Counted from the stretch's first letter, positions 1-16,691 are shown. The stretch: 64,000 bases of DNA from Candidatus Bathyarchaeota archaeon (GCA_963707955.1 OY970176.1:896001-960000); one strand, 5' to 3'. Program-made: numbers and translations. The notes: a model not told the origin generated them from the letters alone.

Positions 1-467
1 CTTTTGGACCATTCTTTGTAGGCTTTGACACCATTTTCATAGGTGATTTTCATTCTTTCTTCTTTGTGATTCTTGAATTGAGGGACTACTAGGTGATCCA
101 CAGATACACCATAGTTGAACCCTAATTCCTTGTAGTAATCCAGGATCCTTACAGGGTCAAATGGAGGCTTTTTCTCGTTTACATATCCAAAGGCTCCGCA
201 GTCTCCAAGAATTTCAAAATTCTGTGGAAGTCGCAATGCTTTGTGGATTCCTTCAAATCGAGCTTGGGCGTATTTTCTCCTGTCTTCCTCTATCGTTATC
301 CGCGATATAAGTAGACCATCAAAAGGAACTTTGTCCGGTCCAAATATCTCCCACATATAGACATCATTCTTCGTTGGTTCTTGCTCATGTTCTGGCGAAT
401 GTGTGTCACTGATGAAATCATATCTTGGATCAACGCGATCATTCCACTCGGGTATGAAGTACTTCAA
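1..467 (-). CDS. dpdA: DpdA-type DNA-guanine transglycosylase, N-terminal part only (runs off the left edge)
   Basis: Manual translation of the minus strand: (M)KYFIPEWNDRVDPRYDF...NDVYMWEIF...FDGLLISR...ILGDCGAFGY...YYKELGFNYGVSVDHL. These match the DpdA-family F-x-P..D-x-VDP-x-YDF, GDCGAF and GxSVDH motifs. TTG start at 467 follows GAGGAG; alternative in-frame TTG at 491. Confidence 0.85.
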   Translation of the reverse strand, partial: MKYFIPEWNDRVDPRYDFISDTHSPEHEQEPTKNDVYMWEIFGPDKVPFDGLLISRITIEEDRRKYAQARFEGIHKALRLPQNFEILGDCGAFGYVNEKKPPFDPVRILDYYKELGFNYGVSVDHLVVPQFKNHKEERMKITYENGVKAYKEWSK

Positions 468-750
468 TGTTTTCTCCTCATGCTGAATCAATACCTAGTT
501 TTGGCGAAGTGGGTCTTTAACATTTTGACTTTGTTCTGCACGCAAGCAAGGTTGAAATAGCCTAAATAAATCCGATTTACTTACCTCATCTATCCTCCAA
601 GGTATTCTGCTAGAATGAAGCGGATTGTTTCTTGGATCGTTCCTAGCTTTCTTTTTTCTCTCTCTTTCTCCAGAGTTCGATTCATTGAGTCCGGAACCGA
701 CATAGTGAACTTCTTTGCCATGATGTTTGCCTCTTTGGAATTCTATGGGC

Positions 751-794
751 GTAAAAATATTTATAAGTAGGTAATTCTTTAGAAGTCTAAAGAA
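751..794 (+). promoter_or_regulatory. BRE/TATA promoter followed by a palindromic operator
   Basis: AAAAATA-TTTATAAG (TTTATA at 760-765), then TTCTTTAGA-AG-TCTAAAGAA (775-794, perfect 9-bp arms), upstream of the ATG at 824. Confidence 0.55.
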
Positions 795-823
795 GTAACC
801 ATATTGAGGAGAATTATTGTCCG

Positions 824-2005
824 ATGAGCAGTGAGAATACTCCCTTGGATTTTAGGTCAGCAACGAAGAAATATGAAAAGTATGGGCTCACGTGTAATCC
901 CTTTCCTTATGTGGGTGTGCCTGATGACACATTGTCGTTGTACACAGATCGCAAGAGAGAATTGAAGACAATTGAAGAGGTCGTCAGAGTTTCCTTGAAT
1001 GGCACATCCTCGCATATAGTCTTGGTTGGGAGTTATGGAAACGGGAAGACGCACACGATGAAATACATCAAGAAGCAGTTGGAGAGCCAAGTGCAGAACG
1101 CTCAGGTGATATACATTGCCGCTCCTGGAGACCGATTCTTGTCACTGTATGCAAATCTGATGTTCGAATTCGGTTTTGATCGTCTGGAAAGCCTGGTGTG
1201 GAGATTCCTGGAATTTGTCAACGGCGAAGAAAATCTGAGGAAGAAAGTGAATGATGGCGAAGTGCTTTTGCCCGAGATCCTAGAGATCGGCAAGAGACGA
1301 TTGCGGAATGAAGTTAAGTATACAGACTTCGCAACTGCTTTTCTCAAGTTGACTCTAGAAGAGTACAAATTCATTGCATGGAAGTACCTATGTGGAGAGC
1401 CTATTCCTTTTGAGCATCGAAGGGAACTCGATGTTGTTATGGCAATAGACAATGACGACAAAGCTCTGAGGGCTTTCATGAGTTTGAAGAAAATCCTTTC
1501 ATTGCTAGGGAACAAGCTGATATGCATACTGATTGACGAGTTTGAGTCCATTGAGTATGTTAACATACTCTTGAAGCAGAAGATCCTTAACAGCGTTCGT
1601 CATCTAATAGATCTTAACCCGCAAGGACTTTGCCTCATAATCGGATGTGCTCCAGACGTTTGGGTTGACATAATCAAAGAATACCACGCCTTCTCCGAAA
1701 GGATATTCAGACAAGTCACACTTCGAGCGCTTAACAAGGAGGACCTGCGCAATTTCGTTATTTCCTACCTACGACATTTCCGAGTCAAAGATTCGGATCC
1801 ACCGACGGATATCTTCCCTTTCACTGAAGATGCAGTTAGCGAGATCCAAAAGGCAGCTGAGGGGAATATACGTCGAATGCTTATGATCTGTAACCAGGCG
1901 ATTGATTTTGGAGTCGATGCAGGATTTCCAACTATGAACGCAAAGAAACTGAAGGAATTGCTGCCTGATCTTTTCGAAATCTCTACGCAGAGTAGTACGC
2001 CTTGA
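824..2005 (+). CDS. P-loop AAA-type ATPase (ExeA/BrxD-like), island ATPase 1
   Basis: YGLxxNPF N-terminus, Walker A GSYGNGKT, Walker B ILIDEFE, C-terminal PFTEDAV..EGNIRRML lid. Overlaps the next gene (TTGA). Confidence 0.8.
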   Translation: MSSENTPLDFRSATKKYEKYGLTCNPFPYVGVPDDTLSLYTDRKRELKTIEEVVRVSLNGTSSHIVLVGSYGNGKTHTMKYIKKQLESQVQNAQVIYIAAPGDRFLSLYANLMFEFGFDRLESLVWRFLEFVNGEENLRKKVNDGEVLLPEILEIGKRRLRNEVKYTDFATAFLKLTLEEYKFIAWKYLCGEPIPFEHRRELDVVMAIDNDDKALRAFMSLKKILSLLGNKLICILIDEFESIEYVNILLKQKILNSVRHLIDLNPQGLCLIIGCAPDVWVDIIKEYHAFSERIFRQVTLRALNKEDLRNFVISYLRHFRVKDSDPPTDIFPFTEDAVSEIQKAAEGNIRRMLMICNQAIDFGVDAGFPTMNAKKLKELLPDLFEISTQSSTP

Positions 2006-3085
2006 CGCTAGACGATGACCTATCAATGTTTCAAATAATAGCTTCGGACAACCTAGCCAGAATTGGTGAGTTAGAAACAAAACATGGATTATTGAAGACG
2101 CCAGCACTATTTCCGGTGCACAATCTTGGCACAGAGGGTGGCTGGAATACGCCCCGGTACTGGGAAAGATACCCTTTTATCAACACGGCCATGTTTAACG
2201 CGTCTTTTCTTTCAATGAACAGAGGTGGGCATCTCGGAACAATCCTGCAGATAGGTGTTCAGCGCTTCATCAGATTCTTTGGAATATCATTTGCTGACAG
2301 TGGCGGGTTCATCTACAAGAAGTACAAGCTGACTCTCAAACCGGAGAGGATTTTAGAAATACAAGAAAAAATGGGAGCAGATATAGCTTCTACTCTTGAT
2401 TATCCAATCCAATGCAAACCGATTTCTGAAAACACCAATGTGACACGTACGATAAAGAACGCTAAACTTGCTCTTTCTTTGAGAAGAGATCCAAAGTTGC
2501 TTCTTTTTGCTAGCATAAATGGATATGACCCTGTGGTTCTGAGAAACGCTGTAAAAAACCTAAAGAGAGCGGGCGATTTCGACGGTTTCGCAATAGGCAG
2601 TTTGATGCCGAGGTACACCAACTATAGGCTCCTGGTCGATTTTATACTCGCTGTGAAACTTGAAGCCCGCGAGACTCCAATACACGTATACGGGTTAGGA
2701 AGTCCGCTTGTCACTCATCTTCTGATGTTTCTTGGCGTCGACTCATTTGATTCCTCCTATTTTGTAGTAGCTTCTGGAAATAGAATCTACTCAATTCCTG
2801 GTTACGGACGCACGGAGTTCAAGGACTTGCACGAATCTGATTCCCCTCCATGCCAATGCCCTGTATGTCAGAAGCATTCGCTCTCTGAGCTTGAGGATAA
2901 GTCGGGAACTTCTCACGCTTCACAACCTATGGACGCTATGGAATGAGATAGATCAAACGAAAACAGCCATTAGAGAGAGAAGACTTGAAGAGCACCTTTC
3001 TTACCGTTTCAGAAACGCAAAATGGGCCAAAAAAGCCTTCGAATACGCAAAACATCGAATACAATATCGTTTCTCGGGTGGTTGA
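2002..3085 (+). CDS. TGT-family transglycosylase paralogue 2 (Zn site, no PUA domain); one extra base near 2890
   Basis: ARIGELETKHG..KTPALFPV, ADSGGF, IQEKMGADIASTLD, AIGSLMP, IHVYGLG, GVDSFDS, CQCPVC. The LLTLHNL..NEI..K.AI.E.RL tail continues in the next frame (ORF 2891-3085). Confidence 0.85.
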
Positions 3086-3940
3086 ATGAGTCTGAGAAAA
3101 ACAATGCGGCCTGTAACGTTGAAAAGAGTAGTAGAGGTCTGCAGCTTGGCAAGCGAGAATGAAGCCATAGACATTGTTGTTGTCTCACAGAGACTCGGCG
3201 TGAGTCATTCCAGAGCCGAAGAGATCGTTCTTGAAGTGGAGGAAATGAGGTTGTTGACAAATCTTGGGGACAAGTGTATAGCTAATCGCGAAACTTCAGA
3301 GTTTCTTAGGCATTTCGAGAACGAGCGATGGGAGAGAATTCATGAGCATTTCCTGGAGAAGTATCGTTTCTACAGAGATTTTATCCACATACTCGCTGGC
3401 CATATTGATGACGAAAAAGGTCTGTCTTTAGAGGAGATCAAAGAAGAATCGACGAGTCGACAATTAAGCCTGAACCAAACGGCAGTCGAGGTCTTGTCAG
3501 ATTGGTGTGACAGACTAGGTGTAATCCAACGACATCTTTACACTAGACGAATTTACACAGTGCGGAAGGATATTGAACCTAAGATTTTCAAAATTGCCCT
3601 CTGCAAATGCTATCGAGAACTTTCCACATGCCATGGGCGAAAAGGAGTATTCGTCGAGATACCGACGATGAGAGAAGATACTTGTGAGAATTTGAAAATT
3701 CCAAGAAAGACCTTTGATGAAAGATTGCGTCTCCTCTTCTTAGAAAATATAGGGCGAATTGAGCTAAGCGGAGCCCCGATCATAACTCTTGCAAAAAAGA
3801 GTCCATTTACCGAGAAGAAAATGATGTCTGATAGCAAAGCTGCTATATTGTCTCCAAAATACGAAGTGAAAAGAGAAAGGGAAGGTTTAGCAGTGGGTCA
3901 GAAAACTTACTATTACTTGGCGATTCATGAGAGCATCTAG
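3086..3940 (+). CDS. Hypothetical protein, probably tandem winged-helix DNA-binding domains
   Basis: 284 aa ORF abutting the TGT stop. HTH-like segments VSQRLGVSHSRAEEIV, LSLEEIKE..AVEVLSDWCDRLGVI and VEIPTMREDTCENLKIPRKTFDERL. The fold is inferred. Confidence 0.6.
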   Translation: MSLRKTMRPVTLKRVVEVCSLASENEAIDIVVVSQRLGVSHSRAEEIVLEVEEMRLLTNLGDKCIANRETSEFLRHFENERWERIHEHFLEKYRFYRDFIHILAGHIDDEKGLSLEEIKEESTSRQLSLNQTAVEVLSDWCDRLGVIQRHLYTRRIYTVRKDIEPKIFKIALCKCYRELSTCHGRKGVFVEIPTMREDTCENLKIPRKTFDERLRLLFLENIGRIELSGAPIITLAKKSPFTEKKMMSDSKAAILSPKYEVKREREGLAVGQKTYYYLAIHESI

Positions 3941-4085
3941 AGAACAGTCTTACTGTTGTCGCCTACACGCATTAGGACCTGTCTTTGGCGCAATCGTCTA
4001 TCGCCTTGGCGACTTGTCAGCGTTTGAAGACGGTGCGGAAGCACTCTAAGGTGTTGTCTCTAGGCATGCGAGTGTAGATGCAAAA

Positions 4086-4724
4086 CTAGACGCCTTTCTT
4101 ACTGCCCCACACAATTTTATGTTGCTGAAGAATAACCCTTGAATCAAGCCCATCTTTCTTGGCAAACTCTACCAATTGCTTAGCGAATTTCCTGTGCGCC
4201 CATTCGGGTTGGATGACCACGTTTAATGGACTCAGGCGTTCAATGATTCTCTTGGCATATTCGTAGTCCATTCTATTGGCGACCACGAATTTGAACTGAG
4301 TTTTGTGATCGTATAATTCTCTTGTTTTCCCCAAAACACGTTGATCACTTTGCATTCCAGAAGAAGGGCATTTGCAGTCCATGCTGATCAAGTCCACTGA
4401 ATCAAAGATCCTTTTGTGGAAAATCGTTCCATTTGTGTTTATTTGTATCCAATATGCATGATTTTTCAGCTGTTTAACAAGCTTTACCACTTCTTCGATC
4501 TGACAAAGAGGTTCTCCCCCAGTTATTGAGACGCTTTTGCAGGGATACTTTACGATTCTGCTTATCGCGTCCTTGACATCCATTTCCTTACCATTTTGAC
4601 GCGCATATTTTGTGTCACACCAAGAACACTCAAGATTGCATCCAGCCAGTCTGATGAAAATCTCCCGTCTCCCAATCTGAATTCCTTCACCTTCAATGGA
4701 GTAGAAAATCTCTGAAATCTTCAA
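4086..4724 (-). CDS. queE: 7-carboxy-7-deazaguanine synthase (radical SAM)
   Basis: ISEIFYSIEGEG, FIRLAGCNLECSWCDT, ITGGEPL, TNGT, LQQHK. Confidence 0.93.
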   Translation of the reverse strand: MKISEIFYSIEGEGIQIGRREIFIRLAGCNLECSWCDTKYARQNGKEMDVKDAISRIVKYPCKSVSITGGEPLCQIEEVVKLVKQLKNHAYWIQINTNGTIFHKRIFDSVDLISMDCKCPSSGMQSDQRVLGKTRELYDHKTQFKFVVANRMDYEYAKRIIERLSPLNVVIQPEWAHRKFAKQLVEFAKKDGLDSRVILQQHKIVWGSKKGV

Positions 4725-5470
4725 ATCTTGCCCTCTTGTCTCAATTTGAGAATTAATGGGTCTTCAATTCCAGCTTCCTGAAATCCTTTGGCCCTGAGCA
4801 AACAAGCATCGCATCTTCCACATGGTACTTCCTCACCAGCGTAGCAGCTCCAGGTCAACTCCAGAGGTGCCTTTAATTGCATGCCTAGTTCCACGATTTC
4901 TCTTTTGTTCTTGAAGAGTAGTGGTGTCTCTATCTTCATTTCGACATTGTATTGTGTACCAACTTTGCTCGCGAATTTCATCAAATCATTAATCCGAGTA
5001 TAGAATTCTGGTCTGCAATCTGGATATCCCGAATAGTCCGTAACGTTGGCAGCAATGAAAATTCTGGCCTCTATGTCTCTTGATCTAATACCATCTTGTT
5101 CAAGCTTGTAGAGGATCTCGGATTCGAGGTATGCTGCAGCCAGAATTATTAGAAAGGTGTTTCGCATTGGAACATATGTTATCGGTATCGTTTTTGACAT
5201 TTCTTCAGGGACTCTGTTTTTAGGAATGGCAAACAACTCTGGGTGAGTTAGGGCCGAGTACCACGCCATGTCTTTGTAGGATGAAATGTCAACTATTGTG
5301 TGCTTGATTTCCAGCACCTTGGCTATTCTCTCAGCACATTGAACTTCTTTGCTAAGCCGTTGACCATAATGCACCGTAATGGCATGCACATCATAACCTA
5401 GACTCTTTGCATAAGCAGCAGTTGTTGTTGAATCCAGTCCGCCGCTAAGCAGAATGACACCTACCTTCAT
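4721..5470 (-). CDS. queC: 7-cyano-7-deazaguanine (preQ0) synthase
   Basis: LSGGLDS, YGQR, SALT, TYVPMRN, DYSGYPDCRPEF, TWSCY...CGRCDAC. Confidence 0.95.
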   Translation of the reverse strand: MKVGVILLSGGLDSTTTAAYAKSLGYDVHAITVHYGQRLSKEVQCAERIAKVLEIKHTIVDISSYKDMAWYSALTHPELFAIPKNRVPEEMSKTIPITYVPMRNTFLIILAAAYLESEILYKLEQDGIRSRDIEARIFIAANVTDYSGYPDCRPEFYTRINDLMKFASKVGTQYNVEMKIETPLLFKNKREIVELGMQLKAPLELTWSCYAGEEVPCGRCDACLLRAKGFQEAGIEDPLILKLRQEGKI

Positions 5471-5506
5471 GAACCCCGCCTCATCATAATGTAATAAGCA
5501 CGCAAA

Positions 5507-5866
5507 TCAACTCTGAAAGTACTCGCACCAACTGTTGGTGCTTTCCCAGACCCTAACCTTTTCCAATCGAACAGATTCTGGCAGATCTTTCAAATTTCGG
5601 TAGATGTATCGCGAAATGTTTTCGGAAGTTGGGTTACCTATGTCTTTGAAGTGATTGAGATAAGAATGGTCAAGTTTTTCAGTTATCTGGCACAAGTTTT
5701 TTTTCAGGGTCTTGAAGTCAACTAGAATTCCGATATTGTCAGGCTTTTCTCCGATAACAAAGACTTCAACTTTCCACGTGTGTCCATGAAGTTTTGAGCA
5801 TTTTCCTTTGTATCCAACTAACTTGTGTGCTGCATCGAAATGCGATTCAATCCTCAGCCTATGCAT
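5507..5866 (-). CDS. queD: 6-carboxy-5,6,7,8-tetrahydropterin synthase
   Basis: FDAAH, C..LHGH, VDF, LDHSYLN, NPTSEN, VWES. ATG at 5866 follows GGTGGTGA. Confidence 0.93.
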   Translation of the reverse strand: MHRLRIESHFDAAHKLVGYKGKCSKLHGHTWKVEVFVIGEKPDNIGILVDFKTLKKNLCQITEKLDHSYLNHFKDIGNPTSENISRYIYRNLKDLPESVRLEKVRVWESTNSWCEYFQS

Positions 5867-5880
5867 TGTTTCACCACCAC

Positions 5881-6674
5881 CTAGAGAACCCCCCTCCACT
5901 CTGAACAGACATTGTGATCATGGATCGACTCGAAGCTCACGCATTTCACTCTGCAATATTTCGAGGGATACTTCTCTTTCAGCAATTGAACACATTTTCT
6001 GACAACATCTTCGACGAATCTAGGGTTCTTATGGATTCTCTCTACAATCTCTTTTTCTTCTGGTCTCTTTAACAACGAGAACGTTGGCGAACTAAAACTC
6101 TGATTGCAGATGTCTATGATGTCCAGGAGTTCGATGTTGTTTCTTGTAATGTCAATCGCTACGCTTAGGGTCCCTCTTTGATTGTGGGTCAGACCGTTAC
6201 ACATTTCTTTCGAACAAGGACAAGCTAATACACCGCTCAGAGAGATTCCAACTGTCTTCTGCTTTGATTTGGTGGAATATGTGGCAAACATCCTCGCAAC
6301 AGAGTTCTCGGTCTCTCCACTTGGTCTTGTTCTTTCAAAAGGAAGTTGGCCGAATACTTTGGTGAAACAATTGTAACCGTGCTTTGCGAAGGCATTTTCA
6401 GAGATTTTTTGCGCCAAGTCTTCTATTGACACAGTTTCTTTGGGATCTCTTCAACCGATTCCACGAACCTGCTCATGTGGACCCCTCGAAGATTAGAAGG
6501 CAGAGTTATGTAGCTGTTTATGGCGACAATCACGTGATAGAGTTTGTCTGGTCTCTTTACCACGACGTATTTTTTTAGTCCTTCTACTCCGACTTTCTCT
6601 AACTCGATTTCATTCTCTGGTTTTTCATTCTGCACATCAATCATTTCAGCAACTTTACTATCTACGTTTTTCAA
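5881..6674 (-). CDS. folE2: GTP cyclohydrolase FolE2/MptA family; one base missing at a homopolymer near 6440
   Basis: DVQN..P..I.LEKVGV and RGVHMSRF in ORF 6423-6674; ACPCS, THNQRG, KRPEE, NPRFVEDVVR, ESIHDH in ORF 5881-6432. Adding one A to CCCAAAGAA joins the two frames. Confidence 0.88.
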
Positions 6675-6677
6675 TGC

Positions 6678-7007
6678 CTACTTCACTCTCCCAGTCAAAA
6701 GATCCTCGTAGACCCGTCTCATGTGAAACACGGCGACTGCAGTTTTCTCATCCAAATTGCATCTGCATGCCTTGCACGACTGGCATATCAACCATCCGCA
6801 CTTGGGGCAAACCGCGGTTTTTGCCGAATCAATTTTTTCGCCGCACTCAAAGCAATAGACTTCCGGGTTGGCGAAGAATTCTAAGAAGTTTTCAATAAGC
6901 CTTGATACTGGAATATGCTTCCGTTTTGCTTCAGCGACCGCTCTTTGTTTCACTTTCTTGTCGATAGTAACATTCAACTTTTCCTTTGTCTTAGCCGACG
7001 GATTCAT
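6678..7007 (-). CDS. Ribbon-helix-helix protein with a Cys-rich Zn-binding C-terminus; first gene of the que operon
   Basis: KEKLNVTIDKKVKQRAVAEAKRKHIPVSRLIENFL (RHH pattern) followed by CFEC..CPKC..CQSC.ACRC. Confidence 0.7.
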   Translation of the reverse strand: MNPSAKTKEKLNVTIDKKVKQRAVAEAKRKHIPVSRLIENFLEFFANPEVYCFECGEKIDSAKTAVCPKCGWLICQSCKACRCNLDEKTAVAVFHMRRVYEDLLTGRVK

Positions 7008-7019
7008 ACGCCTTGATAC

Positions 7020-7040
7020 GTATTAAGGCGCATTTAATAC
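7020..7040 (-). promoter_or_regulatory. Palindrome overlapping the TATA box of the que operon
   Basis: GTATTAA-GGCGCAT-TTAATAC. TTAAAT lies about 25-30 nt upstream of the ATG at 7007 (leaderless spacing). ATACG direct repeats at 7006 and 7016. Confidence 0.5.
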
Positions 7041-7176
7041 TTGCTCACGTGTCCATGTAAAAAGCGCGCGCACTGACAAGCTTGAATTCCTATTCACGCA
7101 AGTCAGTCGTGAACTGGCAAGATATTATTATGAGTTCTTCAGTAACTGATCTTGCCGGTCGGAGTGTTGAAATCAG

Positions 7177-7677
7177 TTGAATGTCGAAACGTCCAATGCC
7201 ATTTTGTTCAAGGTTGCTAGGGAATTGCAGGATAGATCTTTGGAGCAAGGTTTGAGTTTGGCGTTGAGAGGCGGGCTTGCAGTCCATATTCTGATGGCGA
7301 GCGTTGGAAAAGAGCCAAAGGACTGGAGGCACAAAGATATTGATGTTGTGCTATTGGAGAAGCAACTACCCAATTTCATAGCTTTGATCAAGAGTCTTGA
7401 GTATGTTAGATCCCCTCTTTCGTCAAAGACCGAGAACTGCCATGTTTATCAAAATGAAGTCAATGGAAGAAGAGTTTCAGTCAATTTCGTAGGCCAGAAA
7501 ACTCTCGAAGTCGAGGCAAAAGAATACGATGGGTACTACTATAATATTATGCCACCTCAGCTTCTGTATGAACAGATAAGGGAGAAATGGATTTCAATGG
7601 ACAAGAACCCTAAAGTCGCAAGGTCTGTTGACTTCTTGAATGGATATGTCAAACATCAAGTTCAGGAGAAACGTTGA
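7177..7677 (+). CDS. Small Pol-beta-superfamily nucleotidyltransferase
   Basis: ALRGGLAVH...R.HKDIDVVL (GG..DxD signature); 166 aa. Confidence 0.7.
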   Translation: MNVETSNAILFKVARELQDRSLEQGLSLALRGGLAVHILMASVGKEPKDWRHKDIDVVLLEKQLPNFIALIKSLEYVRSPLSSKTENCHVYQNEVNGRRVSVNFVGQKTLEVEAKEYDGYYYNIMPPQLLYEQIREKWISMDKNPKVARSVDFLNGYVKHQVQEKR

Positions 7678-8618
7678 TGATTGAAGGCTCATATCGGGCG
7701 TCTTTTAGGGAGGTGCGCAGGTTGGCCTATCTTAGGTTTGCCTGCGACATTATGGCGATAGAGAAATCGAGCGAGATCAACTTAGCCAGTGAGAAATTCC
7801 TTAATAAGACAAGAACCCTGAACTGGAAACTAAGAACATACACACGAAACACTGGAAAAGTTGAAAGGATTTCGGTGGCAAAGAACCATTTTATAATAGC
7901 GAAGGCGCTTGGGCTAATGAAGATAGAAGGCGAGTTCGTCAAGTCAACTAGTATATCTGCTTTCTTTGCATCCTTGCTAAAAAACGATGAGAACCCATTT
8001 TACCTGTCTCTAGAAGAGAAACTCTCCTTTTTCGAGGAACTGTTCGAGTACAAAGGTCAGGATTTGGCCCCATTGCTGATTCTGTTTGATGATGAAGATT
8101 GGATTGATCTCGGGGAAGGAATAAATAGAATGAAAATAGAGCCAAGACCCCATGTTGATCAAATAGTGAAGTCTGGTTTTGATTGGTTTGTTGATCTTGG
8201 CCTGCTAAGTGCCACATCAGCGAGGAAAGGCAAGTTTGGGATAACAAGAGTTGGCAAGAGTCTGAGGGAGGTTCTTGAATCCAGCAACGGCAGTCATAAA
8301 TCCTCAACTCTACTTGAAGTGTATGCGGAAGATCTCTTGGGTCATATTGATATCTTGGACAGGGCAGATGACGAGTCCATAATGTCATCTTTCCATAAAG
8401 CGAGAGAGAGAACGAGAAAATTTGCAACTAGCGAGATTAGTCGTGATCTCCTTTCTGCCCTGCCAATCGTCCTATTCACACGGTTGCAACTGCTGGCGAA
8501 ATATAGGATACTTTTAAGCGTGGATGAGCTGATTACACATATGAGAGAACTACTTCCCAAGAGTGGAATATCCTTCAAGTGGGATCCCATATACAAAGGG
8601 GGTTACATAAGAACATGA
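7674..8618 (+). CDS. Hypothetical protein, probably winged-helix DNA-binding (BrxA/SspB-like by inference)
   Basis: 314 aa, overlaps both neighbours. wHTH-like segments NHFIIAKALGLMKIEG and FDWFVDLGLL...FGITRVGKSL. Confidence 0.55.
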   Translation: MMIEGSYRASFREVRRLAYLRFACDIMAIEKSSEINLASEKFLNKTRTLNWKLRTYTRNTGKVERISVAKNHFIIAKALGLMKIEGEFVKSTSISAFFASLLKNDENPFYLSLEEKLSFFEELFEYKGQDLAPLLILFDDEDWIDLGEGINRMKIEPRPHVDQIVKSGFDWFVDLGLLSATSARKGKFGITRVGKSLREVLESSNGSHKSSTLLEVYAEDLLGHIDILDRADDESIMSSFHKARERTRKFATSEISRDLLSALPIVLFTRLQLLAKYRILLSVDELITHMRELLPKSGISFKWDPIYKGGYIRT

Positions 8619-9811
8619 AAAGCTCAATCCCAAAGGGATACAAGCAGACCATGAAAGAGCTAGGGTTAAAAAGAAACCCATTTCCTATCGAAGCCCCAAA
8701 CTCAGTTGACCATTGGGCAGATTTCAAGAAGTTATTTGACAAACTTCTGGAAGTTCACCTTCAAGCATTACTTAATCCGTCCCCTAGGATTTACGTGTAT
8801 TGGGGCCATTTGGGAACTGGGAAGACTCATGCGTGCAGATATTTCTGCAATGTTAAGACGCAGAAAAAACTGGTCGAGTCTGTGCAGAAGAGGGGATCGA
8901 TCGGAAAGGTAAAGTGTGTTTCAGCGGCAGCCCAGATTCCAGGAAAGACTGGGCAACTAGTATATCACGTATACTTGCAGATCCTTTCAAGACTTCTAGA
9001 CGAAATGACTAAGGAGGACTTCAAAGACCTGTCAAATATCACCGGAGATGCTGGACCATCTTGCGTGATGGCGCTCAATAGTCTTGCTCGGGGGATAACC
9101 GAGCAGACTCAGCTTTCCGGTCCGTTTTTTGGTTTGATGAAGAACACAGAGGAGTACAGATTCCTCACCTTAGGGAGAACCAGAAAATACGGAACTCTGG
9201 AAACAACATCGGATCTCAGCCTGGTCATAGAGAGGATCTTGAAAGCGATTTTGAGATCATATCGAGTGTTCATCTGGGTTGATGAACTGGAAGACCTCAG
9301 GGAATCCAATCTGGTCGAGAGAAGGTTGTTCAGCGACTTCATACGTAGTGTCTACGATGAAATAGACTATGGCCTAACAATCATTCTAAATTTCTCCTGT
9401 GATACGTTTGACGAAGTCGAAAGACTGCTGTTGCCAGCCGTATGGAGCAGAATCAGAAAGGAAGACACCCAAGAAGGTGTAATCGAGTTTCAACTTTTGA
9501 AAGATGATGGTGACCTGCGAGAATACCTTCTTTCCAGTCTGAGGTTTGGAAGAGGTGCTGATCCCAGTGAGATCATAGAAAAGGAAGCCGCCGAAAGCAT
9601 TCTGGAGACCATGAAAAGGGAGGGAGGCAAGAATGGAATATCACCAAGAGATTTCAACAGAAGAATGCAGGAGTTGTTGTGTAGAAGTTATTATTTCTGG
9701 AAGAAGGAAGGCAAAGGTGAGTTTAAGATAACGAAAGCATCTATTGAACAACCAGAGAAACGCCAAGAAATGCTTGAAGAGCTGAGAGAGAAATTGCTTG
9801 GTGGAAACTAG
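8615..9811 (+). CDS. P-loop AAA-type ATPase, island ATPase 2
   Basis: LGLKRNPFP, Walker A GHLGTGKT, Walker B IWVDELE, ISPRDF. ATGA overlap with the upstream gene at 8615-8618. Confidence 0.8.
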   Translation: MKSSIPKGYKQTMKELGLKRNPFPIEAPNSVDHWADFKKLFDKLLEVHLQALLNPSPRIYVYWGHLGTGKTHACRYFCNVKTQKKLVESVQKRGSIGKVKCVSAAAQIPGKTGQLVYHVYLQILSRLLDEMTKEDFKDLSNITGDAGPSCVMALNSLARGITEQTQLSGPFFGLMKNTEEYRFLTLGRTRKYGTLETTSDLSLVIERILKAILRSYRVFIWVDELEDLRESNLVERRLFSDFIRSVYDEIDYGLTIILNFSCDTFDEVERLLLPAVWSRIRKEDTQEGVIEFQLLKDDGDLREYLLSSLRFGRGADPSEIIEKEAAESILETMKREGGKNGISPRDFNRRMQELLCRSYYFWKKEGKGEFKITKASIEQPEKRQEMLEELREKLLGGN

Positions 9812-9814
9812 GCA

Positions 9815-10522
9815 ATGGCAGAAACAAAGGAGGAAGAGCATAAGCTAGTTTTCGTCTTCGACAATACTTTCTTGGATTTCATTTACTGCAAGCAATTGGA
9901 CCTCAAAATCCTCGATTTAATTAGAACAGTGTTTGATCTCACTCTGGGCAATTTAGACCTGATGATAGTGACTGACAAAGTTCACGATAAGATGGTCAAA
10001 AAATACGCGTACCCCTATGGTGATGAATTCGATAGAATGCATAAGAACTGGGTAAATTTGGCTGAAAGACTTTATGGGAACTCGGAGGTTTTTTGTCAGC
10101 ACTACGAGACTAAAAAGCGTTTTTGGGAAAGGGCATTCGGTTGCTGCAGAACCCACTTTGCGAGTGAAGATGTTGATTTGATCACTTCGGCTGCACTTCT
10201 AAAGCAGAAGCAATTCAATCCTGTTATAGTTTCCGACGATTCCCGCCTCATTTACTTTTCGGATATAATGTCTTCCTATTTTGGCTTCTATTTTAGATCC
10301 TTTTCCACGTTTGAACTGCTGTCGTACCTAGGTACGCCTAAATGCCGGCGAGAGCTCTTCCTTTCCAAGAATCATTTTGACCTGGGAATGAGTCTTGCTT
10401 CACTGAATGATAAGCGAGGAATCACCAATTGTCAGTCTCTCGTTGAGGACCTGAAGGCTGCGACGAGAAAAGGGGTTTTCTCTACGCACTATTGTTCTGC
10501 AAAGTTCCCCCAAACGGTTTGA
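9815..10522 (+). CDS. PIN-domain-like nuclease
   Basis: FVFDNTFL (first Asp), VTDKVHD, SEDVDLI and IVSDDSRL give a PIN-like acidic tetrad. Confidence 0.6.
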   Translation: MAETKEEEHKLVFVFDNTFLDFIYCKQLDLKILDLIRTVFDLTLGNLDLMIVTDKVHDKMVKKYAYPYGDEFDRMHKNWVNLAERLYGNSEVFCQHYETKKRFWERAFGCCRTHFASEDVDLITSAALLKQKQFNPVIVSDDSRLIYFSDIMSSYFGFYFRSFSTFELLSYLGTPKCRRELFLSKNHFDLGMSLASLNDKRGITNCQSLVEDLKAATRKGVFSTHYCSAKFPQTV

Positions 10523-10630
10523 ACACACTATTGACACCGAATCAGGTGAAATCCAACTTCTGTCTCTACACCGTCACAAACTACAGCAATTCTAATAACA
10601 TAACAGAACTTTTCTAAGAAGCAGAAGAAA

Positions 10631-11773
10631 ATGAAAACAATAAAGCCGATGCTATTTGCGGTTTACAGTGTCTGGGGAAACCAATGGCTAAAACTCGCCA
10701 TGTTTATGCAAGAATGGTGCAGAGACATAAATGTACTCGTGAGCACGGATAGCGTCTTGAATAGTAGTGTTCCAAGGTATGAAGCAATTACAAAATATGG
10801 ATTATCAAAAGGTTTCATAAAGACAAGGGAAGAATACCGCGAATTCATGGAAAATACGGCAAGAAAATTCCCTTATTTGTCGAATTATCTGGACGAATTC
10901 GAGAAACCATTGCCAAAGATGACGTCCCTGTTTATGCTGGACAGCGGTGGATATGGTTTTACAAAGGCTTTCGAAGGTAACAACATACGTAATCAACTGA
11001 GAATACGCATCCCAGATCTCTACAATTGTTGGAAGCACGGAGACGAAAAGTCTCAAGACATGGTTCTGGAGAAGCAGCAACTCCTAAAACCGGATATTCT
11101 GATAACCCTTGATAAAGTTATCTTCCCCAACGAATTGGCCAAAGCAAAAAAGGAGAAAATTGGATTCAGCCTCAAATGCGCAAAGATAGCACTTCAGCGA
11201 AAAAAAGAAGGGATCATCGGCAATACAGCCTTGTTCGCAGCAGTTCATGGTTATGGACCAAGTCCCAACAATGGACCAGAAAAGTACTATGATAACACAA
11301 GAGAGTACATGAATAACTTGTTGAGCTTTGAGAGTGAAGTAGGTGTTCGCTTTGATGGCTTTTCAATAGGATCTCTAGTTCCAATATCGAACGAGCAGAT
11401 ACTAAGCTCGATAGCTAACGCAGTCCGGGATGTCCTCGGAAGTGAAAGGCGTAAAACGGCAGTCCACGGCCTTGGTGCCTCTACTGACAACAAAATATCG
11501 ACGCTCTACAAGTGTGGAGTCAGGATCTTTGACACAAATCTCCACATGAAGAATGCGAGGAATCGATTAATATACCATCCAACTGAACGCAGATACGTTA
11601 GTACCAAAAAGATCAAAAAAGAAGATTGGGAATGCGACTGCAAGATCTGCAGCAACTATACTTGGGATATACTGAACGAAAATCGTCGGAGAGTTCGCGA
11701 AGTTTCCACCGTACTCATCTCACTTCATAACCTATACACTGATCATCTGAGATTCCTTGAAACTCTGCGCTGA
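10631..11773 (+). CDS. TGT-family transglycosylase paralogue 3 (divergent N-terminus, Zn site)
   Basis: MLDSGGYG, KPDILITLD, AAVHG, DGFSIGSLVP, VHGLG, GVRIFDT, CDCKIC...LHNL. Confidence 0.85.
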   Translation: MKTIKPMLFAVYSVWGNQWLKLAMFMQEWCRDINVLVSTDSVLNSSVPRYEAITKYGLSKGFIKTREEYREFMENTARKFPYLSNYLDEFEKPLPKMTSLFMLDSGGYGFTKAFEGNNIRNQLRIRIPDLYNCWKHGDEKSQDMVLEKQQLLKPDILITLDKVIFPNELAKAKKEKIGFSLKCAKIALQRKKEGIIGNTALFAAVHGYGPSPNNGPEKYYDNTREYMNNLLSFESEVGVRFDGFSIGSLVPISNEQILSSIANAVRDVLGSERRKTAVHGLGASTDNKISTLYKCGVRIFDTNLHMKNARNRLIYHPTERRYVSTKKIKKEDWECDCKICSNYTWDILNENRRRVREVSTVLISLHNLYTDHLRFLETLR

Positions 11774-11892
11774 CATGATAGGCCTTCTAATAAGCCATTG
11801 TAGGGAAGACATAGCACTAGCGCACGCTTGTCCGCTTTGTTATGTTCTAAACCGTTTGTCTAGTCTGTAGCGCGTTCTTAGAATTCTTCCTT

Positions 11893-13245
11893 TCATAAAG
11901 AGTATTCTTTTGCATATTCTATCGTCTGGGCGTTCTTGAAGTAGTGTCCGAACAGTTGCTGATTCTCAGTGTGCACCGGAAAAACCTGTTTGGGTTGAAT
12001 GCAGTTGATCAAGTCCACTAGTTGGTCCTTATTCAAGTGCCCTGATGCATGCAGTTGATGAAAGTGCATTCTGAAGTGATCTATCCAGTTGTGCATTACC
12101 GCATCTTCAATGTCTTCTTCGCTGAACGGCTCACTCATGCTGTGAATGAACTGGCTGCCGGGCTCCGGTTTGATGTCTATCAACTCCGCGAACTGGTAGA
12201 AGTCCAGGTCCATCACAAGCTTTCCTTGGTTCTTGTGAATAAACTCGTGCGTCACCATTTTGTCCATGAACTTTCGCTCCCAAACATAGTAGTCCCTCTC
12301 ATCGAAGCTACCTGACTTTTTCCGCTTGTAGTAAACCAAGATATCGTCATCGTTCAGCGGATCCGGAAGATCGAGATGCTCATCATCAAGAAGTTTGCTC
12401 AGCAAATATGCAGTCTTGGGCGAAACCACGATTTTCCTTCCGTTTTTCTTGGCGACCTTGTAGAAGCTTCTAAACCTGTCTAAATCTCGACTGTAGCGCA
12501 TCGCAAGCACCAACTTATCGGTTGAGGAAACAACTTCGTTGCTCAACTGCTTAACCTGAGATTCCGAATAGTTCTTGCGCTTCTCCTTCTCAACCATCCT
12601 TGTCCCCTCACAGATCAAGCCAACCGGCTCACAACCTTGGGCCTTCTCCAAGAAATCTTCGGTCAGATCTTTCCTTGGACCGTGAATTCTCAGGTCTCCC
12701 GTGTAGACCACTGAACCTTCAGAAGTGTGAATGATGAAACCATAAGCGGCCGGAATAGAATGATCCACATGCACCGGTTCAACCGTCACGCCATCAACCT
12801 TAAAGCTGTGTCCAGTGCGAAACTTGCGACATTCATGTTCTCCATACTTGCAGAAACTACTAGTCTCCTCCATAGACTCCATCAACAGCTTAGTGCCAAC
12901 CCCGACGTAGACGGGAATCTTCGGGTCCAAGAACTGAATATGAGCCACATGATCAAAATGAGCATGCGACAAAAACACAGCATCCACCTCAGGCTCAGAG
13001 TATGGAAGATTGGTCGAAGCCAACATTTCCCGAGAATACAAACCGCTGATGCGAGGCAACAGGTTAAACGCAAAGTAATCTCCTAGACCGTTGACTGCTC
13101 TTGGTCCGAGCCAACTCGTGAAGTAATCAGTACCAAAGGTGAAAGACTGCCCAAAATCGAAGAAAATCCTCGTCTTTCCGTCTTCCAGGAGAATCTTGTT
13201 GCCACCAATCTCGTTCACTCCACCGTAGAACCTGAGTTTAACCAA
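11893..13245 (-). CDS. MBL-fold/beta-CASP hydrolase, RNase J-like
   Basis: GGVNEIGGN, SHAHFDH, VDHS, YTGD, CEGT, HASGH, PVHTE. TTG at 13245 follows GAGGGG. Confidence 0.85.
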   Translation of the reverse strand: MVKLRFYGGVNEIGGNKILLEDGKTRIFFDFGQSFTFGTDYFTSWLGPRAVNGLGDYFAFNLLPRISGLYSREMLASTNLPYSEPEVDAVFLSHAHFDHVAHIQFLDPKIPVYVGVGTKLLMESMEETSSFCKYGEHECRKFRTGHSFKVDGVTVEPVHVDHSIPAAYGFIIHTSEGSVVYTGDLRIHGPRKDLTEDFLEKAQGCEPVGLICEGTRMVEKEKRKNYSESQVKQLSNEVVSSTDKLVLAMRYSRDLDRFRSFYKVAKKNGRKIVVSPKTAYLLSKLLDDEHLDLPDPLNDDDILVYYKRKKSGSFDERDYYVWERKFMDKMVTHEFIHKNQGKLVMDLDFYQFAELIDIKPEPGSQFIHSMSEPFSEEDIEDAVMHNWIDHFRMHFHQLHASGHLNKDQLVDLINCIQPKQVFPVHTENQQLFGHYFKNAQTIEYAKEYSL

Positions 13246-13316
13246 ACGAAGCCCCTCACAAGAGCATAAGTACAAGAGTCTTATAGCATCTTGCGAATGG
13301 AACGAGACGGGTACAT

Positions 13317-14666: not shown

Positions 14667-16691
14667 TCATGCAGCCTTTATCTGTGAAACGCCGTCTTTC
14701 TTCTCGATTTTCATGACTTGGTCTGCGAAGCTTTCTAGTTCTTTCTCGTGTGAGACCATGATGACTTGGGGGCATTTCAGTTCGTCCAGTATCTCTCTTA
14801 TCTTGAACAGCTGTTCCTTGCTGAAGCCATCGGTGGGTTCGTCAAGTATCAGAAGATTGGACTTGATTCCCGCTGAGACCTTCTGCACGATAGTGTTAAG
14901 TGACAGTCTATAAGCTAAAGCCAGACTGGTTTTCTCGCCGCCGCTTAGATAGTTGTAGTCTTGTTCATAGCCGTCCTGTTCAACTATCGGAGTGAAATCT
15001 TCGTCGATGCGGCTTTCTTTGCCTGGGTCGTCGACGAGCATCGTCCACCATTTCTGGAAGTGCATATTGAATTCCTGGTTTATGTTCATCATCACGTGCG
15101 TCTCGATCGATTGCAAAGTGGGTATGAAGAAATCTTCAAGCCACATCTCGTATTCCCTCAGTCTCTCCGCGGCTTTTCTCTCCTTCTCCTTACCCTGGAT
15201 CTCTATTTCCAGTTCGTCAACTTCTCTTGTGAGCATTTCACGGGTTCTCTGGCTTCCAGAGATGCCCTTTTCCACCTTAGTGAGCTGCAACTCATCTTCC
15301 TTCAGCTCCTTGGATAATCCTTCAATCTCCGTTGAGATCCTGTTGAATTCCTCAACGTGTTGCCTGGCCTTCTCAAGCCTATCTTCTGCATTCGCGACCT
15401 GCTCCTTCAGCTTCTGGGCTTTTTCACGGTCCTTTTCTATTCTCTCCTGGTTCTTCTTGACGCGTTCGGCCAGATTCTGCAGCCTATCTTGGGCTTTCTT
15501 GTACTCTCTGAGCGCATCTTGCAGGACTTCTATTTCTTTGATTCTTCTTTCACAGGCAGCGACTTCTTCTAATGCCTGGCTTTTCTCTTCTTTTTTGAGC
15601 CTGATCTTCTCTTCAAACTCCTCTGGTTCCGCTGGTCTATCGCACGTTGGGCAGACCCTGTTTCTTTCAACAGACTCGTAATCACATATCTTTGCGCCTA
15701 TGACATCCTGCGCCGACCTCATTTCCCGCTCTTTCTGCCTCGCCATCCTCAATTCTTCTTTCAGCTGGTCCTCAGTCTTCGGCGTAGGCTCCTGCATCTT
15801 GCTCAGCCTTTCCACGTCGGGCTGCAGTTTTCCTGTTTCCGACGCAAGCTCTTCAACCTCATTTTCGAGGTTAACAACTTCACTGTTCTTGTCTTTGATA
15901 TCCGCTTCTAGGAGGGGAACTTCACCTGCAGCTTTTACGAGCGACTCCGTGCTTTTCCTTAGTGCATCGACCTTCTCTCGCAGCGTGGCAACTTTTCCGT
16001 CAAGATCCGCCTTCTTTCTGCCTAGACCTGCCAGTTCTTCCTCGCATTTTGCGATTTCGCCCTTTTTTGCCCTGTATTTTTCTCTGCGGCCTTCAAGGTC
16101 GGAAGCGTGTGAAGCTAGCTTGATCGACTTTTCCTTAATCGACTTCGCCAGAGTTGACGAGTTGTCCTGCGCTATTCGATAATCCTCGATTCTGAACGCT
16201 TTCCGAAGAGTCTGCAGCCTAGAGTCTGCCCTCATCCAGATAATCGCTTTCATCTCTTCCTGGGGCGTGAAAATCGCGTACCTGAAGATGACGCTCTGCG
16301 CCTTTGGGTCTGCTGGCTCGTTGAAAGCGAGTATGTCAAGAATCTTCTCTTTCATTTCAGAAGCTGATAACTGCAGAACCGTGCCCTCGGTTTTGAGGCT
16401 GCAGTCAGATTGTTGGACGCTCTTGGCTTTTCGCTCCAGGCTGCGGCAGGCCTCATACTCTTTGCCATCAACTTCGAAGCACAATGTTACTAACCCTTTT
16501 TTTGCGCCGGCCTTAAGCAGGGCTCCGCCTTTCTCTGAGCCTAATCCGAACAGCGCGAATTCTATCGCCATCAGGATGGTTGACTTTCCCGAACCTATGT
16601 CGCCCTCAAACAACGTCGTGCCCATGGGAAAAGTGATTGCCTGCTCCTTGTAGCTTCTGATGTTTTCAAGCCTGAGCGATTTGAGTATCAC
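14667..16691 (-). CDS. rad50: Rad50 ATPase (short coiled coil)
   Basis: GDIGSGKST, Q-loop TPQEEM, Zn-hook CPTC, LSGGE, LILDEPT, VSH. Confidence 0.93.
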   Translation of the reverse strand: MILKSLRLENIRSYKEQAITFPMGTTLFEGDIGSGKSTILMAIEFALFGLGSEKGGALLKAGAKKGLVTLCFEVDGKEYEACRSLERKAKSVQQSDCSLKTEGTVLQLSASEMKEKILDILAFNEPADPKAQSVIFRYAIFTPQEEMKAIIWMRADSRLQTLRKAFRIEDYRIAQDNSSTLAKSIKEKSIKLASHASDLEGRREKYRAKKGEIAKCEEELAGLGRKKADLDGKVATLREKVDALRKSTESLVKAAGEVPLLEADIKDKNSEVVNLENEVEELASETGKLQPDVERLSKMQEPTPKTEDQLKEELRMARQKEREMRSAQDVIGAKICDYESVERNRVCPTCDRPAEPEEFEEKIRLKKEEKSQALEEVAACERRIKEIEVLQDALREYKKAQDRLQNLAERVKKNQERIEKDREKAQKLKEQVANAEDRLEKARQHVEEFNRISTEIEGLSKELKEDELQLTKVEKGISGSQRTREMLTREVDELEIEIQGKEKERKAAERLREYEMWLEDFFIPTLQSIETHVMMNINQEFNMHFQKWWTMLVDDPGKESRIDEDFTPIVEQDGYEQDYNYLSGGEKTSLALAYRLSLNTIVQKVSAGIKSNLLILDEPTDGFSKEQLFKIREILDELKCPQVIMVSHEKELESFADQVMKIEKKDGVSQIKAA

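Follow-up and report, generated by a model that had tools for sequence, protein, structure and literature searches.

The DNA analysed here is a window of 64,000 nucleotides (OY970176.1:896001-960000, G000:C1:896001-960000) taken from the 2.35-Mb, single-contig genome of a Candidatus Bathyarchaeota archaeon (GCA_963707955.1), and positions given below without a prefix are counted from its first letter. Positions 1-11773 form the right part of an island of 20.8 kb (window -8930 to 11867), in which genes for the 7-deazaguanine precursor preQ0 lie together with three genes of the tRNA-guanine transglycosylase (TGT) family. A preliminary description, made before any database search, had seen there a non-canonical 7-deazaguanine modification or defence cluster, truncated at the left edge of the window. 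The island indeed extends 8.9 kb further left, and a listing of open reading frames (ORFs) combined with profile scans confirmed the observation as a whole. The interpretation was sustained in part: a non-canonical 7-deazaguanine cluster in an accessory island is supported, and what had been said on DpdB and DpdC, and on novelty, is revised below.

The left edge of the window cuts a dpdA-like gene, also noticed in the preliminary description, of which positions 1-491 (ORF 3-491, minus strand) hold the 5' part, 163 codons, matching the NCBIfam DpdA model at 7.6e-40. The whole gene (G000:C1:894746-896491, or L002:8746-10491, minus strand) encodes 581 amino acids (aa), with a PADLOC DpdA match at residues 9-408 (5.4e-87) and a DUF6884 domain at residues 442-547 (9.4e-16). 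Residues 8-405 align with the DNA-guanine transglycosylase PDB 7ui4 (1.1e-58), including the GDCGAF, VDH, FDS, CxCxxC and FHN motifs, so that equivalents of Asp95, Phe99, Asp130, Asp256 and the zinc site, whose roles in that enzyme are treated in the part of PMC10164549 available to us, are all aligned. DUF6884 is presented in the accessible part of PMC11701544 as a relative of YaaA/DUF328 defined by CxxxK and LSAxxG motifs, and both are present in the island protein, as CSKRK and ISAKYG. PADLOC DpdC models match the fused domain weakly (2.7e-06), and no second DUF6884 was found in the genome. Haloarchaeal DpdA-like proteins, of about 730-1150 aa, likewise carry DUF6884.

To the right of dpdA, on the plus strand, lies an operon of three genes. 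The first (824..2005) encodes a 393-aa AAA+ P-loop ATPase of BrxD/ORC-Cdc6-like type (PF10923 BrxC_BrxD, 8.6e-10; AAA_22, 2e-07), with the Walker A sequence GSYGNGKTH. The second, TGT2 (2002..3085, ORF 2002-2946), consists only of a catalytic domain of the archaeosine TGT (arcTGT) type (PF01702, 2.8e-33). The third (3086..3940) encodes a 284-aa protein with no match in Pfam, PADLOC or NCBIfam, for which an AlphaFold2 model (pLDDT 89.6, pTM 0.86) predicts three tandem winged helices and a C-terminal beta domain; a Foldseek search of the PDB with this model gave the SelB WH1-4 fragment 1lva as best match (E 1.4e-4), and also RPC62. A complex prediction for TGT2 and the winged-helix protein, using the pair from a related genome, G260, scored 0.20 for a mark of 0.32 and speaks neither for nor against binding. 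The preliminary description had reported two TGT-family genes with a zinc site besides DpdA, each grouped with a P-loop ATPase and a winged-helix-like protein of its own. Such a group is found here and again in a second module further right, which comprises a TGT gene at 10631-11773 (PF01702, 8e-20), an ATPase gene at 8579-9811 and a gene for predicted tandem winged helices at 7674-8618 (pLDDT 93.3). By hhalign, no relation was detected between the two winged-helix proteins (probability 1%).

The alignment of TGT2 with arcTGT (PDB 1iq8, 1.2e-36) is confined to residues 10-338 of the 582-aa chain, that is, to the catalytic domain. TGT2 resembles arcTGT in this domain, its catalytic Asp residues and its CxCxxC...H zinc site, D99, D133, D250, C284, C286 and C289 being invariant in the alignment of its family. 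Unlike arcTGT, it is accessory and DpdA-linked, forms a separate clade, and lacks the C1, C2 and PUA domains. From its sequence the enzyme looks active. It is not an arcTGT family member, as it scores 146.8 bits against a cut-off of 350 for the arcTGT (TgtA) equivalog TIGR00432 and lacks the tRNA-binding C-terminal domains. Relationships were examined in a tree of 175 rows (quick IQ-TREE, SH-like approximate likelihood ratio test (SH-aLRT) as support), in which long proteins were represented by residues 1 to 380-450 and from which TGT matches below 250 aa (L105) and DpdA matches below 400 aa (such as L093) were left out. The TGT2 clade (SH-aLRT 99) was separate from the housekeeping arcTGTs, of which 28 of the 29 labelled rows, including the genome's own copy, grouped in a second clade (99) whose 33 rows also took in five more distant TGTs; outside it stood only L018, a long-branched protein of 353 aa. 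DpdA formed one clade (100). That the extra TGTs are housekeeping archaeosine TGTs was rejected, as they form separate clades. The outcome that the preliminary description had named as fatal to its own reading, housekeeping TGTs without conserved linkage, does not apply to TGT2, which has both a clade of its own and a linkage found at 61 of 80 loci.

These 80 archaeal loci were obtained by scanning genome contigs with the TGT2 alignment, and neighbours were counted by phmmer and clustering; a search at the protein level gave 102 relatives of TGT2, mostly of about 352 aa. An ATPase homologue lies beside TGT2 at 62 of the 80 loci and a winged-helix protein at 61, the three genes being together at 61. 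The linkage of ATPase, winged-helix protein and TGT across genomes, which the preliminary description had put forward as the test of its claim, therefore recurs for TGT2; for the second extra TGT, one other locus was examined (L015, below). Among the misses, L052 ends ahead of the third gene, TGT2 stands by itself in the 20.9 kb of L094, and the remaining 17 loci hold more distant TGTs. A separate DpdA-like ORF lies within 10 kb at 52 of the 61 triad loci. Nine have none in the fetched flank, and all five of the genomes tested among these encode DpdA elsewhere, three of them 12-17 kb away on the same contig. Genes for QueC, QueE and type I FolE were found at 34, 32 and 22 triad loci, respectively. 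Carriers were found among haloarchaea, in several cases on plasmids, and in Methanoregula, Methanosarcina sp. Mfa9, Bathyarchaeia and one bin labelled Aenigmatarchaeota.

Within the class, a TGT2 orthologue was found in one of 300 genomes, G260, a genus-level relative (79% identity); the other 32 matches in these genomes were long housekeeping arcTGTs with 32-36% identity. In G260 the same nine genes are syntenic, at 54-88% identity, with intact TGT2 and FolE2: DpdA-DUF6884 (58%), the ATPase (73%), TGT2 (79%) and the winged-helix protein (54%), together with QueE, QueC, QueD, FolE2 and a small ribbon-helix-helix (RHH)/zinc protein. Two further observations concern the carriers. The DpdA rows of L085, L086 and L088 (Haloarcula vallismortis, Halorubrum rubrum and Haloparvum sedimenti) are identical, and the TGT2 rows are identical in two of them and nearly so in the third, which points to very recent transfer or a shared element. 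In a Methanoregulaceae genome (G669:C1:2449231-2450416), a TAA stop divides DpdA into two pieces.

The preQ0 genes lie on the minus strand at 4086-6674 in the order folE2-queD-queC-queE, as the preliminary description had it. FolE2, a GTP cyclohydrolase IB (5881..6674), is split in the assembly into two overlapping ORFs, 5881-6432 and 6423-6674 (PF02649, 5.8e-40 and 2.4e-17). QueD, the 6-carboxytetrahydropterin (CPH4) synthase, is at 5507..5899 (PF01242, 9.4e-38), and QueC, the preQ0 synthase, at 4721..5470 (PF06508, 4.6e-62). QueE, the radical-SAM 7-carboxy-7-deazaguanine synthase (4086..4724), was assigned on Radical_SAM (2.9e-11) and Fer4_12 (1.3e-09) matches, operon position and 56% identity to the G260 orthologue. 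Next to folE2, also on the minus strand, is the gene of the RHH-like protein with a C-terminal zinc ribbon (6678..7007, 109 aa; DUF6364, 5.4e-07, with weak RelB/DinJ and rubrerythrin-like matches), a probable regulator with homologues in G260 (59%), in L015 (60%) and at 4 of the 80 loci. A scan of the genome found the island QueC to be the sole bona fide QueC and FolE2 to be the sole copy. QueC is present in 7 of 40 relatives, at 34-44% identity, and absent from the other 33. The operon is the genome's only source of preQ0 and probably also feeds the housekeeping arcTGT encoded 1.07 Mb away.

Two genes of the core are frameshifted in the window's assembly. TGT2 is there 314 aa long, with a frame change near 2891-2900, and the HNL-containing C-terminus runs on to 3085 in another frame. 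In short-read contigs, one base at 2891 is absent in all three runs with depth there, which gives an open frame of 360 aa; the restored protein has 78% identity to the G260 orthologue over its full length. Similarly, an additional C behind 6441 in the X1 contig opens a FolE2 frame of 264 aa (78% identity to G260). The runs come from one study and are possibly the window's own source, their contigs being an independent assembly; X1 alone had depth at 6441 (X2 and X3 had none), and X4 had no depth at either site. The frameshifts are probably assembly or consensus errors, or a minor variant, with the genes intact in the population. As proof of decay they were rejected, because short-read contigs of the same population lack them. 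Other genes of the genome may hold similar consensus errors.

Leftward of DpdA, the island carries in order a 391-aa protein with no assignment beyond an Atlas lead to the FokI recognition domain (0.90), a BrxD-like ATPase (BrxC_BrxD, 1.1e-18), a 157-aa phospholipase D (PLD) nuclease (PLD157, L002:5859-6332; PLDc_2, 1.3e-08), a HerA-like ATPase (DUF87, 8.8e-13; HerA_C, 7.3e-05; PADLOC HerA and mad8), an ATPase-PIN fusion and a 427-aa unknown. HerA, PLD and the BrxD-like ATPase are found by the core in this genome and at L049 and L054, both from one other Bathyarchaeia metagenome-assembled genome (MAG). The arm of G260 is a different one (L046 and L047, G260:C11:321039-333708), made of a 1847-aa MZB/YprA-type helicase, a nuclease of the PLD type, a NACHT-like ATPase of 934 aa and small partners, of which the helicase and the PLD nuclease have homologues at 22 and 12 haloarchaeal loci, respectively. 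A third type, UvrD with PD-(D/E)XK, was seen at 10 loci (14 ORFs). The G260 cluster also adjoins genes for a large terminase of T4 type, a YQBQ-like protein and an ATPase resembling ABC/SMC proteins (L046:1748-7313, G260:C11), which suggests a provirus or satellite-like element next to it.

The limits of the island were set by comparison with the closest congener, G007, in which the flanks have 92-96% nucleotide identity and the alignment ends at window -8938 and resumes at 11867. Between these points G007 holds about 7.2 kb of different DNA. The G+C content of the island is 42.7%, versus 47.9% for the genome, and DpdA was found in none of 40 relatives. The island occupies a variable defence spot, at which the congener has a type II restriction-modification cassette, and it is horizontally acquired and accessory. 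No integrase or virion gene was found in it, and an integrated element bounded by a tRNA gene was unsupported, there being no tRNA gene within 20 kb left of the window nor in its first 30 kb. Beyond the left end lie ordinary genes (M42 peptidase, ABC transporter).

The canonical Dpd system, dpdA-K of Salmonella Montevideo, was taken from the accessible parts of PMC10164549 and PMC5699537. Like that system, the cluster lies in a genomic island, relies on the preQ0 pathway and encodes a DpdA orthologue whose catalytic residues are conserved, with a domain of the YaaA superfamily for the DpdC step and a nuclease of PLD type close by. It differs in the extra, obligatory trio of AAA+ ATPase, second TGT and tandem winged-helix protein, and in having the que genes inside the island. 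The preliminary description had supposed that dpdB and dpdC might lie outside the window. Instead, the left flank holds the HerA, PLD and ATPase genes just described, and a DpdC-like domain is fused to DpdA. The ParB_N domain of DpdB is absent from every island ORF, the genome's only ParB_N matches being at 278 kb and 1.70 Mb, and the genome has no match to PF03883 (DUF328), for a separate DpdC, or to the PF09369/MZB/DUF1998 models of a YprA-type helicase. Apart from PLD157, matched to DpdK at 2.6e-4, no other DpdD-K model of PADLOC matched an island ORF. The cluster is thus no gene-for-gene copy of canonical dpd.

The degree of novelty is nevertheless lower than the preliminary description had claimed, since a 2025 preprint (10.1101/2025.09.15.676423) gave the name BRIGADE to Dpd-like deazaguanine systems from haloarchaea. 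In the part of that preprint at hand, BRIGADE is defined by one or two YprA-like helicases and is reported only from halophilic archaea, and its main text, to the same extent, names neither DpdA nor TGT. Like BRIGADE, the island is an archaeal 7-deazaguanine cluster with a PLD or PD-(D/E)XK nuclease (here the que genes and PLD157), and many of the 61 loci are haloarchaeal with homologues of the large MZB helicase and of PLD. Unlike BRIGADE, the window's genome is of Bathyarchaeia type and has a HerA/PLD/BrxD-like arm in place of an MZB/DUF1998 helicase. As this genome is without a YprA helicase, though G260 has one, the constant module reaches past the BRIGADE definition; conversely, BRIGADE-like arms are not confined to haloarchaea, because G260, a Bathyarchaeia genome, has the homologous helicase/PLD set.

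Two more systems were compared. BRC, the BREX-related capture system, in the accessible part of PMC12839542, combines a HerA/FtsK-type ATPase and a TGT homologue with ATPases of ORC/Cdc6-like or STAND type and a DNA-binding protein of several domains; it requires PglZ together with a DUF6079 BrxC-like ATPase, and its authors propose deazaguanine marking without DpdB or DpdC. The island resembles it in its HerA/FtsK translocase and differs from it in the bona fide DpdA-DUF6884 fusion, in the full que operon, and in having no Pfam match to PglZ, DUF6079, DUF4007 or GNAT among the 19 ORFs scanned. In type IV CBASS, Cap10 is a TGT-family protein that serves protein modification in defence, together with Cap9 (10.1101/2025.04.06.647259, from the part available). 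The island likewise has TGT-family proteins in a defence context with 7-deazaguanine biosynthesis enzymes; unlike type IV CBASS, it has no CD-NTase match and no Cap9-type QueC, and its matches to the PADLOC TGT model are near noise. We read the cluster as a Dpd-like variant with a HerA/PLD/ATPase arm, neither canonical Dpd nor BRIGADE as defined. A two-TGT writer module was not described in the literature searched, although supplements (BRIGADE Fig S1 and Tables S1-S2; BRC Data S1) may list the trio genes.

Our preferred interpretation, to which we give a probability of roughly two in three, is that the core is an archaeal Dpd-like system putting 7-deazaguanine into DNA, within an accessory defence island. 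The system probably marks the cell's own DNA, by which foreign DNA would be told apart. In such a system FolE2, QueD, QueE and QueC, identified by sequence, would make preQ0 from GTP as in the established pathway, and the DpdA domain, given its orthology and conserved residues, would swap guanine in double-stranded DNA for preQ0. The fused DUF6884 may then convert the inserted nitrile to the amide (dADG), or act otherwise on the flipped base. The least certain step is that the trio would stand in for the ParB-like DpdB, with the ATPase providing an ATP-dependent step and the winged-helix protein recognizing DNA or a site. As a second active transglycosylase, TGT2 would serve DpdA as a partner subunit or write at a second site or strand. 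As restriction arm, we propose here the HerA-like ATPase, the small PLD nuclease, the BrxD-like ATPase, the FokI-recognition-like protein and the ATPase-PIN fusion, and in other lineages either the BRIGADE-like set of YprA helicase and PLD or UvrD together with PD-(D/E)XK.

Such a modification module would be built unlike bacterial DpdA/B/C, with the DpdC-like domain on DpdA, no ParB-like ATPase and a constant second catalytic TGT next to a winged-helix protein and an AAA+ ATPase, and the role of this second transglycosylase, once found, would widen the known repertoire of TGT-fold enzymes. In the literature searched, bacteria, phages and archaeal viruses are the established bearers of 7-deazaguanine in DNA, and chromosomes of cellular archaea are not among them. 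The cluster offers a concrete, recurrent gene set for testing this, and tests should be feasible as many carriers are cultured haloarchaea, among them Haloferax gibbonsii ATCC 33959, Haloarcula vallismortis ATCC 29715 and Halorubrum distributum JCM 10118. The restriction arms, swapped round a constant writer module, clearly exemplify how defence systems evolve by modules.

Several points weigh against this interpretation. Neither DpdB nor a DUF328 DpdC is present, the ATPase as a DpdB stand-in would be an argument from gene context, and the role given to TGT2 is a guess. Both the modification chemistry and the defence role are predictions, and no report of 7-deazaguanine in the DNA of a cellular archaeon was found in the literature searched. 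In Natrinema pallidum DSM 3751 (L094), a TGT2-clade gene stands without ATPase, winged-helix protein or DpdA in its 20.9 kb. The match of PLD157 to DpdK is poorer than its PADLOC matches to ZacB and DrmC. It could also be that core and left arm are independent neighbours in a defence island; they occur together in only three Bathyarchaeia loci, two of them from one MAG. If the TGT2 and folE2 frameshifts are real for the strain of the window, the system is dead here. Finally, since the que operon is the only preQ0 pathway of the genome, part of the cluster may serve tRNA archaeosine.

An explanation that we consider unlikely, though the best surviving of the rivals, is that the cluster is cargo of mobile elements and modifies plasmid or provirus DNA to evade host restriction, as phage DpdA systems do, rather than defending the host. 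The plasmid carriers (L061, L062/L105, L077 and L102), the terminase and YQBQ-like genes abutting the G260 cluster, the (near-)identical TGT2 and DpdA rows across haloarchaeal genera, which indicate recent transfer, and the ParA of L015 would all fit. On the other hand, IMG/VR yielded no member of the TGT2 family at family-level identity; of 69 candidate stretches there, 8 proved to be relatives, each with 25-33% identity, and the second extra TGT had no match. The lack of integrase, tRNA and virion genes in the island, the helicase and nuclease arms adjoining the core in most lineages, and the restriction-modification system at the same site of the congener also argue against mobile cargo.

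The second module, on the plus strand, follows the RHH/zinc-ribbon gene. Its TGT, which we call TGT380 (10631..11773), is a divergent member of the family, with 41.5 bits on the arcTGT model. In the alignment of its own family, DSGG, TLD, FDT and CxCxxC...H are invariant (D104, D161, D301, C335, C337, C340 and H366), and this family forms its own clade (SH-aLRT 100). It is very rare: five homologues were found among 5.77 billion proteins, none in 400 other genomes of the phylum and none in the viral contigs of IMG/VR. The other genes encode a 166-aa nucleotidyltransferase (NTase)-like protein (7177..7677), the 314-aa tandem winged-helix protein (7674..8618), the 410-aa ATPase (8579..9811) and a 235-aa PIN-like lead (9815..10522). 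The winged-helix protein has no Pfam match; the best PDB match of its AlphaFold2 model was the recognition domain of FokI (2fok, E 5.9e-3, probability 0.98), and 27 representatives at E<=1e-3 were found among 1.84 billion. The ATPase (AAA_22, 2e-05, and AAA_16, 3.6e-04, both below cut-offs; NF047389, 1.3e-05) has the Walker A sequence GHLGTGKTH, and while its ORF opens with GTG at 8579, the ATG ('MKSS') 12 codons downstream, which overlaps the upstream stop, appears the likelier start. Three pairs of a GxxGxGKTH-type ATPase with a multi-winged-helix protein occur in the island, each adjoining different enzymes.

In describing this module, the preliminary description had added an NTase and a PIN protein to the ATPase and winged-helix genes. 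The latter two held, and the former two are weakly supported: neither has a Pfam match or a PDB sequence match at E<=1, the NTase assignment coming from an L015 homologue (54% identity) with a PF10706 match at E 0.0045, below cut-off, and the PIN assignment from Atlas leads of 0.88-0.91 (DUF4935, PIN_halo, PIN_13 and PIN clusters). A metagenome scan with the TGT380 alignment gave one locus, L015, in which the TGT (66%), NTase-like (54%) and RHH/zinc genes are conserved and further genes encode a stand-alone DUF6884, an ATPase, a member of the queuosine-salvage family (PF10343, 6.9e-17) and ParA. By BLASTP, the winged-helix protein matched the unknowns of L015 weakly (best E 0.005). We consider this NTase-like/FokI-like winged-helix/ATPase/PIN-like/TGT380 module most likely to be a separate, rarer system of the same general design, drawing on the same preQ0 pool. 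In Haloarchaeobius sp. (L125:9965-13748), TGTs of 660 and 414 aa flank a stand-alone DUF6884 (8.4e-16), and two TGTs with DUF6884 may be a general theme.

A more specific joint reading of both modules, either part of which would be new, is tentative, as is the idea of the preliminary description that several transglycosylases write, read or excise the base. In its first part, the four genes for DpdA-DUF6884, TGT2, the winged-helix protein and the AAA+ ATPase would be a widespread archaeal writer in which the two TGTs form a hetero-complex or write two different 7-deazaguanine marks; if true, such a mechanism would have no known counterpart in bacterial Dpd. In its second part, the TGT380 module would be a separate, essentially undescribed 7-deazaguanine-dependent immune system, reading, swapping or conjugating the base rather than writing a self-mark.

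Three other explanations are less probable than mobile cargo. Protein deazaguanylation, in which one or both extra TGTs would handle a 7-deazaguanine-protein conjugate in the manner of Cap10/Cap9, TGT380 having the NTase-like protein or the ATPase as target, seems improbable to us. A TGT-family protein can modify protein in defence, as the available part of 10.1101/2025.04.06.647259 describes, the second module does contain an NTase-like gene, and the PADLOC model for the CBASS-type TGT gave weak matches (E 9.4e-4 for TGT380, 9.5e-3 for TGT2). These matches are near noise, though, and the NTase-like ORF, at 166 aa, leaves the island with no protein of CD-NTase size. The only QueC is canonical and lies inside a full preQ0 operon, and both TGTs keep the Asp triad and zinc site of nucleic-acid TGTs.

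Equally improbable is a role as sensor or eraser, in which TGT380 or TGT2 would recognize viral DNA containing 7-deazaguanine and remove or swap the base, exposing the DNA to the PIN or PLD nucleases. Targets and precedents exist, according to the parts available of PMC6884629 (DpdA pathways encoded by archaeal viruses) and of 10.1101/2025.10.29.685425 (defence glycosylases against deazaguanine-modified phage DNA). TGT380 is grouped with a PIN-like and a FokI-like DNA-recognition protein, and its L015 relative adjoins the queuosine-salvage-family gene. Against this, TGT chemistry is base exchange, not simple excision, and the argument is one of gene context, with one other TGT380 locus readable.

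The weakest explanation is housekeeping archaeosine synthesis, with the que operon and TGT2 serving tRNA G15 amid unrelated neighbours; it would suit the only QueC and FolE2 of the genome, the preQ0 requirement of its full-length arcTGT and the fact that arcTGT is the best named family for TGT2, yet the score of TGT2 far below the arcTGT cut-off, its missing tRNA-binding domains, its place outside the housekeeping clade, its absence from 299 of 300 class genomes in which arcTGT is common, the absence of QueC from 33 of 40 relatives and the tie to DpdA at 52 of 61 loci make it very improbable.

Some minor observations concern the site of the island. At the same chromosomal site, G007:C14 (L129:7637-14848) encodes a GHKL/MORC-like ATPase, a DUF1016_N protein, an N6/N4 methylase together with an MvaI/BcnI endonuclease, and a ParA whose partner has 180 aa; L015 has a ParA and a 180-aa partner of similar kind. 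The right border is formed by a beta-CASP metallo-beta-lactamase nuclease (window 11893-13275), 95% identical in congeners and hence a core gene, and further right an SMC/Rad50-like AAA_23 protein is encoded at 14667-16691, where the G+C content climbs to about 0.5. Just left of the island (G000:C1:886302-887051), an S-adenosylmethionine methyltransferase domain (L002:302-676; Methyltransf_25, 1.3e-10) and, after it, an ORF of 118 aa without matches (L002:695-1051) resemble a single gene in two pieces, perhaps from another indel.

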